Virus record (IMG/VR): IMGVR_UViG_3300002920_000044
Location: 19,344-83,343 of that record
Source of the DNA: a virus
Length of the DNA stretch: 64,000 bases
Reading direction: 5' to 3' (one strand)
Shown: positions 18,648-49,546 of the stretch, in pieces
Layout: each line of letters opens with the position of its first letter
How positions within the stretch are numbered: position 1 is the first letter of the stretch
Position numbers and translations under genes: made by a program
Notes under the pieces: generated by a model
What the model was told of the DNA's origin: nothing
Databases searched by the model: none
Seen by the model: the letters and a program-made list of their open reading frames with translations, nothing else

Positions 18648-19478
18648 ATGGATTATTACAACATACTAGGCGTTGAAAAAACTGCCACCCCAGACGAAAT
18701 TAAAAAAGCTTACAGAAAGCTTGCAATGCAATACCATCCCGACAAAGGGGGGGATCCTGAACAGTTCCAAGCTATTAACGAAGCCTATGAAACCTTAAAA
18801 GATGCAAACAAGCGCGCCCAATATGACAGATATGGAAATATCTCGTCACAAAACTTTAGATACCAACAGCAGGCTTATTCTGTACAAGACATAGATGATT
18901 TGAATGATATATTCAATCATTTTTTTGGCAGAAACTTTGAACAAACATTCAGAAATTCTGGAATTAATTCTAGGCAAATAATGCGTACTACTGTGGGGGT
19001 TTCTTTGCGCGAAGCTTATACCGGCGCAGAGAAGATAATTCAACTACGCACAATGACAGAGAACAGGACTATAAGTATTAAGGTAGCACCTGGTATTAAA
19101 ACTGGCGACCAAGTTAGATATGACAATGTAATTGAGGGAATAATTTTAATAGTTAGCTTTCATGTCATGGATGATTTGAAGTTTACCAGAAACGGGCACG
19201 ATTTGTATTGTAACTTGCCTATCTCTGTGTTAGATTTAATTGTTGGAAAGACAATTAAATTTACCTCTATTGATGATAAGGAAATTGAAGTTACTATCCC
19301 TCCCTATATGCAGCCAACAAAGACTATCAGAATACCGGGAAAAGGTATGCCAGTTTATGGTAATCCCGGTATATATGGCGATCAATATTTAGTATTAAAG
19401 CCCTTTGTTCCTGTAGAATTACCTAAATTCCTAATTGACGCGATACAAGAATTTACCTCATCTAATAAGGATAATTAA
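18648..19478 (+). CDS. dnaJ: DnaJ/CbpA-type co-chaperone (J domain plus C-terminal domain, no zinc finger)
   Basis: MDYYNILGV...[19 protein letters not shown]...[10 protein letters not shown]; C-terminal [16 protein letters not shown]...IRIPGKGMP. Confidence 0.9.
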
Positions 19479-48268: not shown

Positions 48269-48538
48269 ATGATGACTATCGACGAAGTATTTGAAGAAAT
48301 AAAAAGAGAAAGAGCATACCAAGAAAACAAGTGGGGCAATTTTGAGCAACATCCTCAGTCTTTGCCCGGGTATCTTTTGATTATGAAAAAAGAATTAGAA
48401 GAGGCCGAAGACGGCTGGATGAAAAACTCAACAGGCAGAAACCATGTATTACACGAAATTTTGCAAGTAGCTACTGTTGCAATTGCCTGCTTAGAGGAAC
48501 ATGGAAATAAAAGTTATTTGGGAAACAGCGATAAATAA
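48269..48538 (+). CDS. MazG-like all-alpha NTP pyrophosphatase
   Basis: ERAYQENKWG...KELEEA...HEILQVATVAIACLE (ExxE...ExxQ pattern). Confidence 0.5.
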   Translation: MMTIDEVFEEIKRERAYQENKWGNFEQHPQSLPGYLLIMKKELEEAEDGWMKNSTGRNHVLHEILQVATVAIACLEEHGNKSYLGNSDK

Positions 48539-48539
48539 A

Positions 48540-48610
48540 GATGTAGCACAAAGGCTACATCCTGAGAGAAATCTCCGTTGAGCGTAAACGTTAGACGCTA
48601 CGAAAGGAAA
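48540..48610 (+). ncRNA. Candidate structured 5' leader of folE
   Basis: 8 bp stem gatgtagc/gctacatc, GAGA-GAAA-TCTC GNRA hairpin and agcgt/acgct stem, packed into about 70 nt before the AAGGA RBS. Confidence 0.5.
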
Positions 48611-48615
48611 CAACA

Positions 48616-49290
48616 ATGAGTTACAATAGAGTTAAAACTGATCCAGAGTTGGGCCAAAGAGTTCATAATTATTTGGTTAAAATGGGTGTTGAAACCCCTG
48701 TCATAGAAAATAATCTAAGCAGAACTACTAAAATTGAAATCATCCAACAAAAATTTGCAGACATTATGGAAACACTGGGCTTGGATCTAAGTGACGATAG
48801 CTTAGCTGACACTCCTAAGCGTGTGGCCAAGATGTATGTGGGTGAGATTTTTTGGGGATTAGATTATGATGCATTCCCCAAGTGTACCACTGTAGATAAC
48901 AAGATGCATTATGATGAAATGGTAATTGAACGCAACATAATTGTTATGAGTAACTGTGAACACCACTTTATTACCATCGATGGGCTAGCAACAGTAGCAT
49001 ACGTTCCAGACAAGAAGGTTCTTGGCTTGTCAAAGATTAACAGAATAGTAGAATATTTTGCAAAAAGACCTCAGATACAGGAACGTTTGACCGAGCAGAT
49101 ATTCCATGCATTGTGTTATATTCTAGAAACTGATAATGTTGCAGTTATGATTGACGCTAAGCATTATTGCGTAGCTAGCAGGGGCGTAGAAGATACTGGT
49201 TCTAGGACTATCACTAGCAAGTTAGGCGGTGGATTTAAGTCTGACCCGGCAGCTAGAGCAGAGTTCTTGAGCATAGCCAAGCAGCGTTAA
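48616..49290 (+). CDS. folE: GTP cyclohydrolase I
   Basis: TPKRVAKMY, SNCEHH, GLSKINRIV..FAKRPQIQERLT and HYCVASRGV. Confidence 0.95.
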   Translation: MSYNRVKTDPELGQRVHNYLVKMGVETPVIENNLSRTTKIEIIQQKFADIMETLGLDLSDDSLADTPKRVAKMYVGEIFWGLDYDAFPKCTTVDNKMHYDEMVIERNIIVMSNCEHHFITIDGLATVAYVPDKKVLGLSKINRIVEYFAKRPQIQERLTEQIFHALCYILETDNVAVMIDAKHYCVASRGVEDTGSRTITSKLGGGFKSDPAARAEFLSIAKQR

Positions 49291-49546
49291 TCTTGGCTTT
49301 TTCAATTTCACCTTGTTATTATTTTTTATGCTTAGAAAGATATTCTGACAAAATGATATATTGACTAACCTGTCTTCAAGATGCCCAAAAAATATTGAAT
49401 TGGATAAAGTAACGTGATAATATAAAATGGGAAAACTAGTAGTAAAGATAAGCTTAATATTGATTTGAGTTGTTGTTTTTTATTTCATGATTTAGAAGAT
49501 GTGTAGTAATTAATCTTAAATTTTAATCTTAAATTAAAGAAGGATA

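Follow-up and report, generated by a model that had tools for sequence, protein, structure and literature searches.

The folE gene of an uncultured phage, which encodes GTP cyclohydrolase I, is preceded by a structured RNA leader that is a genuine, apparently undescribed phage RNA family. The leader lies within the window, the 64,000-nucleotide stretch of DNA analysed here (positions 19,344 to 83,343 of IMG/VR record IMGVR_UViG_3300002920_000044), which is part of a 100-kb uncultured-phage record of about 37% GC carrying T4-type late-promoter motifs; since the record is estimated to be 29% complete, the genome is very large. The leader probably controls the stability and the translation of the first enzyme of the phage 7-deazaguanine DNA-modification pathway, and the reading that we tentatively favour is that of a protein-bound translational operator combined with a 5' stabiliser. 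The parts of the leader and the gene that follows are these:

48530 to 48537, + strand: T4-type late promoter motif GATAAATA, with ATAAATA at 48531-48537; overlaps the stop codon of an upstream open reading frame of 89 amino acids.
48543 to 48558, + strand: hairpin 1, core GUAGC-ACAAAG-GCUAC, a 5 bp core with the loop ACAAAG.
48564 to 48575, + strand: hairpin 2, GAGA-GAAA-UCUC, a variable spacer hairpin, often with a GNRA- or UNCG-type tetraloop.
48576 to 48580, + strand: CGUUG junction, with CGUU as the 5' strand of a proposed pseudoknot stem (S1) and G48580 as its would-be loop 1.
48581 to 48599, + strand: hairpin 3, stem AGCGU/ACGCU (48581-48585 with 48595-48599) and a 9-nt loop.
48602 to 48608, + strand: ribosome-binding region GAAAGGA, 2-3 nt past hairpin 3 and 7 nt before the ATG.
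48616 to 49290, + strand: folE, GTP cyclohydrolase I, 224 amino acids, ATG at 48616 (Pfam PF01227 GTP_cyclohydroI, 6.3e-61).

The three hairpins and the late motif are present in the 48530-48615 region where the original prediction, which had proposed a riboswitch-like element in front of folE, placed them. Hairpin 1 reaches 8 bp in the window phage, 48540-48547 pairing with 48554-48561. The 77 nt that separate the upstream stop codon from the folE ATG had been described as unusually GC-rich, and they are: 44.2% against a mean of 28.9% over 43 gaps free of open reading frames, the second highest value of any gap. The minimum-free-energy fold of 48539-48618 consists of the three hairpins and a CGU/ACG extension, and its energy of -21.4 kcal/mol lies well below that of 200 shuffles (-11.8 +/- 2.6 kcal/mol; z = -3.68), none of which equals it. 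The same GATAAATA form of the motif, whose promoter function is presumed from T4 biology, occurs 15-30 nt upstream of many open reading frames in the window. Among about 50 late-motif sites there, the folE leader is the longest; the hairpin that follows its motif has an energy of -11.1 kcal/mol, while all the other roughly 50 + strand sites are at -9.5 kcal/mol or weaker and mostly between 0 and -5 kcal/mol.

The leader recurs in related phages. Searches of IMG/VR with FolE gave 160 loci, with relatives of 76-86% identity in 80 viral contigs. Most of the folE upstream regions in these relatives contain the late motif, a 5-nt spacer, and a hairpin of 5-9 bp whose loop is of the A-N-R-A-N-G type, mostly ACAAAG or ACAACG. 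This promoter and hairpin 1 are common to three classes of leader. Type A, that of the window, continues with a variable second hairpin, CGUUG, a 5-bp hairpin with a 9-nt loop, and the ribosome-binding site, whereas types B/C and type D have A/U-rich spacers and other short elements instead of hairpins 2 and 3. Pattern scans found type A in 39-44 viral contigs and 34 metagenome contigs, and the 54 distinct copies aligned from both sources keep all three stems. Hairpin 2 is missing in one relative (L147) and varies widely in sequence and length elsewhere, and RAAAGG is kept at the ribosome-binding region in most relatives. The motif is restricted to phages: a scan of 185,579 bacterial and archaeal genomes yielded 7 pattern matches, all chance matches with 0-2 of the 5 stem pairs. 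A megablast search of the region against GenBank phages found no close relative. In KVP40, whose FolE is 63% identical, an unrelated terminator hairpin lies upstream of folE, and in Synechococcus phage BUCT-ZZ01 folE adjoins queD and has no leader.

The original prediction of a structured leader in front of folE is borne out by the test that it had itself set, conservation and covariation in homologous leaders, and the conserved structure is tied to folE. In a plain MAFFT alignment of 37 distinct leaders (A1), 95.9% of cells are paired, compared with 82% in shuffles and 29-44% with slid partners, and both sides change in 12 of the 18 pairs. When 54 leaders are aligned with the model (A4), a procedure biased in the model's favour, 98.1% of cells are paired and 13 of the 18 pairs have changes on both sides. 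By stem, A4 shows 100% pairing with double changes in five of five pairs for hairpin 1, 94.7% with double changes in four of four for hairpin 2, and 99.3% with double changes in four of five for hairpin 3, whose U-A closing pair is invariant. The stems include G·U pairs on the + strand, which argues for selection on the RNA of that strand and not on the DNA.

Several bases between and beside these drifting stems are fixed. TAAATA is invariant in alignments of 37 and of 69 leaders, and most leaders have 5 nt between it and the first G of hairpin 1, a few having 4 nt. The first A and last G of the hairpin 1 loop are fixed in all leaders examined, both positions having been pre-selected by the alignment pattern. 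All 54 leaders of A4 carry CGUUG without exception, and the loop core ACG of hairpin 3 is likewise invariant in them. When 34 distinct modules comprising the junction and hairpin 3 are aligned (A2), the invariant positions are CGUUG, the closing U-A of hairpin 3, the loop core ACG and a loop A (window position 48593), with one G-C pair, a loop U and a loop G near-invariant. Pattern scans that left the junction and loop positions free returned only CGUUG and (A/U)ACG.

The leader is also specific to a single locus. A model of the whole leader (R1) has exactly one match per phage record searched, and in every case that match is at the folE locus. A model of the hairpin 3 module (R2) likewise has one match per record, always at folE, in 5 records, with no extra copy at other genes in records of 100-330 kb that are 29-77% complete. 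The promoter and hairpin 1 (R3) match once per record, at folE, in 10 phage records, which include five of type D (144-303 kb). The loop motif of hairpin 1 has no second occurrence within the window. Given this uniqueness and the single R3 match per record, the idea that hairpin 1 is a general late-leader element was rejected.

The gene that directly follows the leader is not always folE. Among 52 distinct type-A leaders it is folE in 37; in the other 15 a free-standing homing-endonuclease gene with GIY-YIG and NUMOD3 domains stands directly before folE (for example L006:1001-1669 and L008:2340-3002; further carriers are L081, L082, L084, L090, L094, L096, L103, L130, L152, L159, L219, L229 and L247). 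In L008 (2199-2342) a complete type-B leader is followed at once by a type-A promoter and leader, the endonuclease gene, and then folE. L219 (2044-2193, - strand) has the same tandem, in which the type-B leader has decayed in its ribosome-binding site. The promoter, leader and endonuclease gene thus look like one mobile cassette. L081, of type A with an endonuclease gene, and L061, of type D, are alike from the upstream gene through the promoter to the 5' arm of hairpin 1 and diverge beyond it, which together with the tandem leaders shows that recombination has exchanged leader modules. Type A probably owes its spread to the endonuclease cassette.

These arrangements could be read as the trace of an element that acts as DNA, namely a homing or cleavage site of the GIY-YIG endonuclease or an autorepression operator such as that described for I-TevI, carried along with the cassette and not selected as RNA. 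All 15 of the 15 GIY-YIG genes found in front of folE carry the type-A leader, and L008 and L219 have the promoter, leader and endonuclease gene downstream of a type-B leader as if by one insertion, as this explanation would have it. It is nevertheless very improbable. The 37 of 52 distinct leaders that have no endonuclease gene hold the same invariant bases, which are therefore not a relic of the cassette, whereas a target site in endonuclease-free genomes should face pressure to change. Moreover, the compensatory stem changes include G·U pairs, whose counterparts on the opposite strand would be C/A mismatches, and so reflect selection at the RNA level.

The fixed bases of the junction and of hairpin 3 can be joined in a single fold. 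CGUU (48576-79) is complementary to AACG (48587-90) in the loop of hairpin 3, which would leave UUAG (48591-48594) as loop 3. With the hairpin 3 stem as S2 (5 bp, 48581-85 with 48595-99), the order of elements at 48576-48599 is S1-L1(1 nt)-S2-L2(1 nt)-S1'-L3(4 nt)-S2', and both this order and the loop lengths fit a classical H-type pseudoknot. We infer that CGUUG and hairpin 3 would form a compact pseudoknot of this type, the end of which would fall 2-3 nt short of the ribosome-binding site. At the predicted helical junction the invariant bases form a cluster, made up of the closing U-A, the G of L1, the A and G of L3, and the inner pair of S1. Three of the candidate S1 pairs never vary (54/54) and the fourth, inner pair is U-A in 49 leaders and U·U in 5; because the S1 strands do not vary, covariation cannot test this helix. 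On its own the S1 duplex is weak (-0.9 kcal/mol), as expected of a helix that depends on tertiary contacts or a partner. An alternative pairing of CCGUUG with the loop of hairpin 1 was rejected: it is perfect in the ACAACG variant only (-6.8 kcal/mol) and contains an A·G mismatch in the commoner ACAAAG (-1.0 kcal/mol), and the free variation at the loop base is not accompanied by any in CCGUUG.

In the mechanism that we favour, the leader would be the 5' untranslated part of a late, folE-specific phage mRNA and would act in cis, post-transcriptionally. Hairpin 1 would stabilise the 5' end, as set out below, hairpin 2 would serve as a stable spacer of free sequence, and the pseudoknot of CGUUG and hairpin 3 would be an operator at which a phage protein, acting in trans, sets the translation of folE. 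FolE itself would be the simplest candidate binder, since no other product is encoded downstream in every case. That S1 and several loop bases are fixed while the other stems drift by compensatory change indicates a module that is read by sequence. The pseudoknot module is more likely to be bound by a protein than by a metabolite. Its restriction to phages, its replacement in sister phages and the 15 of 52 leaders in which it precedes a homing-endonuclease gene speak for a protein operator or are neutral.

Operators of this general form are known. T4-type phages have pseudoknot or hairpin operators beside the ribosome-binding sites of gene 32 and gene 43 (PMC3014915). The pseudoknot operator of gene 32 in T4, T2 and RB69, through which gp32 exerts autogenous control, is single-copy, gene-specific and missing in some related phages (PMC3014915); this operator and that of gene 43 resemble the folE motif in being single-copy, lineage-restricted and replaceable. 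The hairpin operator by which the T4 and RB69 DNA polymerase autoregulates gene 43 has a short stem and a loop sequence, -UAAC-, that is conserved from T4 to RB69, and lies upstream of the start (PMC3014915). UAAC likewise appears in the hairpin 3 loop of about half the folE leaders. The gene 43 operator hairpin, too, is located just 5' of the ribosome-binding site. The folE element differs from both operators. It has no sequence similarity to that of gene 32. The gene 32 knot is placed some 67 nt upstream and serves to nucleate cooperative binding along an A/U-rich spacer; the candidate folE knot ends 2-3 nt before the ribosome-binding site. The hairpin 3 loop, in contrast to that of gene 43, has 9 nt and an invariant ACG and needs the 5' CGUUG, and a link of the folE leader to DNA polymerase is not indicated.

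A number of points weigh against a protein operator for folE. S1 lacks covariation support, both of its strands being invariant and its inner pair U·U in 5 leaders, and in predicted secondary structures the ribosome-binding site does not switch consistently between on and off states. Sister phages with leaders of types B/C and D, whose FolE is 76-80% identical, do entirely without hairpins 2 and 3, which means that the module can be replaced, and in 15 of 52 leaders the putative operator abuts the start of the homing-endonuclease gene and not that of folE. The transcription start from which hairpin 1 takes its role is placed by T4 spacing only. FolE is not known to bind RNA, and any binder of the leader is a candidate only.

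Type D, the commonest leader type (L012, L042, L061, L065 and others), has a second hairpin of its own about 25 nt before the folE ATG, ACCAUC-ACAAAG-GAAGGU or ACACUC-ACAACG-GAGGGU. This hairpin repeats the loop of hairpin 1 and holds the ribosome-binding site in its 3' arm. Its stems contain one mismatch each, and the covariation is not clean. Hairpin 1 and the second hairpin of type D could be a pair of sites for one binder.

The fixed TAAATA-G spacing of 5 nt, occasionally 4, places the stem of hairpin 1 at +1 under T4 late-promoter geometry, and the invariant G at 48543 is the predicted first base of the late transcript. This position suggests that hairpin 1 may be a protective 5'-terminal structure. 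A hairpin that starts at the first transcribed base would give a base-paired triphosphate end that is presumably poorly engaged by RppH and RNase E. Known 5'-terminal stabilisers such as the leader hairpin of Escherichia coli ompA are similar in that they lie no more than 1 nt from the 5' end of the mRNA, as is predicted here, and in that the stem sequence is free and the position fixed. Hairpin 1 differs from the ompA type in that its position is predicted from promoter spacing and its loop is biased, and its stabilising effect is putative. The possibility, raised at the outset, that hairpin 1 is simply a terminator finds no support, as it has no + strand U-tract and begins at the predicted +1 of the late promoter. 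No hairpin of the leader is followed by a U-tract, and transcription attenuation is therefore unlikely.

On the minus strand, a terminator scan called 48538-48563 terminator-like; the site consists of hairpin 1 and the late motif in complement, the latter being T-rich. It is not approached by any minus-strand gene, and the G·U pairs of relatives speak for the + strand. An AUG-UAG start-stop (48541-48546) in the 5' arm of hairpin 1 was considered as a leader peptide and rejected, since it is not conserved in relatives; at its position some relatives have a 6-codon open reading frame and others have no AUG, and it is probably incidental.

The same features allow a constitutive leader with no effector, an explanation that we consider possible and less probable than the operator. 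The hairpins would then protect the 5' end and leave no single-stranded A/U-rich entry sites for RNase E, the ribosome-binding site would be kept clear of long-range pairing, and a slow enzyme that is needed in large amounts would thereby have an mRNA that lasts and is translated well; the invariant bases might be tertiary contacts of a self-contained pseudoknot. The location of hairpin 1 at the predicted +1, with its fixed spacing, is consistent with this account, as are the exchange of leader modules between sister phages that retain folE and the fact that the leader works equally before a homing-endonuclease gene. Five more distant leaders (L160, L162, L166, L178 and L182; FolE about 60-65% identical) have the late motif, then after 4-6 nt a long hairpin, and then a second hairpin, all unrelated in sequence to the window leader, which points to a sequence-independent need for a 5' hairpin. 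In three of these (L160, L162 and L166) the ribosome-binding site lies in the loop of a GCAA...UUGC hairpin.

The predicted accessibility of the ribosome-binding site in type A also agrees with a constitutive leader. The original prediction had extended the hairpin 3 stem through CGU/ACG and UCC/GGA helices to cover AAGGA. These helices can be drawn in the window sequence but are not conserved in relatives. Across 52 leaders the mean unpaired probability of the ribosome-binding site is 0.55, in a folding model that leaves out pseudoknots, and the leaders have no sequestering helix in common, so the site is mostly accessible. What speaks for an effector is that a purely structural helix should drift, whereas S1 and 4-5 further bases are fixed in 54 leaders (apart from the U·U at the inner S1 pair in 5), and that neither module occurs at any other gene in records of 230-330 kb.

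A metabolite is the other conceivable effector. A covariance-model search with Rfam 15 (4227 models) returned no match at the gathering score over the whole window, and none even at E <= 10 in 48400-48750 (351 nt), which excludes membership in the THF-II, THF-I, preQ1-I/II/III and purine-type families. The THF-II riboswitch (folE motif), to which a loose resemblance had been suggested, is a single extended hairpin with a conserved ligand-binding internal loop and occurs in Alphaproteobacteria. That resemblance does not hold beyond the location in the folE 5' untranslated region, which by itself does not define the family. The phage leader has three hairpins and not one long hairpin with an internal loop, its invariant bases are in the junction and the terminal loop, and the CCGU...ACG likeness extends no further.

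The preQ1-I riboswitch (RF00522) offers a second comparison. The candidate phage knot is like it in being a very small H-type pseudoknot near a ribosome-binding site and in the company of 7-deazaguanine pathway genes, and both RNAs have one variable stem and one that is sequence-fixed and weak. In preQ1-I an A-rich 3' tail lies in the groove of P1, the end of the tail, including the ribosome-binding site, pairs with the P1 loop, and an invariant loop C binds the ligand. The phage leader differs in that its first stem is the fixed one, it has no A-rich third loop of 6-7 nt and no invariant loop C, its ribosome-binding site is outside the knot, and its motif is found in phages only. The hairpin 3 loop is complementary to the 5' CGUU alone and not to the 3' tail, and tail-loop pairing of the preQ1-I kind does not covary in the phage leaders. 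In the literature, we found no report that phage folE, or the deazaguanine pathway of phages, is under the control of a riboswitch or other RNA leader.

A phage-only riboswitch class would take CGUUG and hairpin 3 (about 25-30 nt, perhaps stacked on hairpin 2) as its aptamer, a proposal that we regard as unlikely. Its ligand might be 7-carboxy-7-deazaguanine (CDG), preQ0, a pterin intermediate, or GTP or guanine, and binding would, on this account, stabilise the weak S1 beside the ribosome-binding site and so tune translation of the first committed enzyme. Several observations are as a riboswitch would have them: the strict tie to one metabolic gene at the head of a pathway, invariant unpaired and junction bases amid covarying stems, the weakness of S1 on its own, and the lack of a terminator, which leaves translational control as in other small pseudoknot switches. 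The invariant bases also lie at the predicted helical junction, and the ligand of preQ1-I occupies the equivalent junction. An invariant module that can form a pseudoknot beside the ribosome-binding site would likewise suit a small aptamer. Yet the leader matches no riboswitch family and has no copy in the 185,579 bacterial and archaeal genomes, its core would be smaller than any known natural aptamer, and it offers no invariant loop cytosine to pair with a guanine-like ligand. The ribosome-binding site is in neither helix, a conserved alternative pairing was not found in folds that leave out pseudoknots, close relatives manage without the module, and in 15 of 52 leaders the start that it would control is that of a homing-endonuclease gene. 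In order of our confidence, the protein-bound operator with a 5' stabiliser therefore stands first, followed by the constitutive leader, the riboswitch and, last, the DNA element, with a remainder assigned to none of them.

The neighbours of folE, by Pfam, are a GMP-reductase/IMPDH-family gene, QueD and a phosphoribosyltransferase, and the neighbourhood is a 7-deazaguanine cluster. Canonical QueC was not found in ten large related records of type A and type D (G000-G010), which gave weak C-terminal family matches only, and QueC content does not distinguish type-A from type-D records. One further feature lies at the end of folE:

49275 to 49303, + strand: terminator-like hairpin AGCCAAG...CUUGGCU, predicted by folding (7 bp, with a 10-nt loop that holds the folE stop codon), followed by UUUUU.

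The statistical support for this hairpin is weak, with z = -0.7 when a 56-nt stretch is folded, and it was missed by the terminator scan, whose loops are 3-8 nt. It would, tentatively, make folE a self-contained late unit of one gene, with promoter, leader, gene and terminator.

Modification of DNA with 7-deazaguanines is a major anti-restriction strategy of phages, and its regulation appears to be undescribed. The folE leader, a compact and well-defined RNA of about 75 nt at the committed, GTP-consuming step, covaries clearly and is represented by more than 50 natural variants. If it is bound by a protein, it would be a new autogenous or pathway-specific translational operator, of which very few are known in T4-type phages. 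If it is bound by a metabolite, it would be the first virus-restricted riboswitch class and the smallest natural aptamer known, and the enzyme that opens a viral DNA-hypermodification pathway would be under feedback from a 7-deazapurine or pterin intermediate, such as CDG or preQ0. The link with the GIY-YIG cassette, in turn, shows how phages can swap regulatory leaders.

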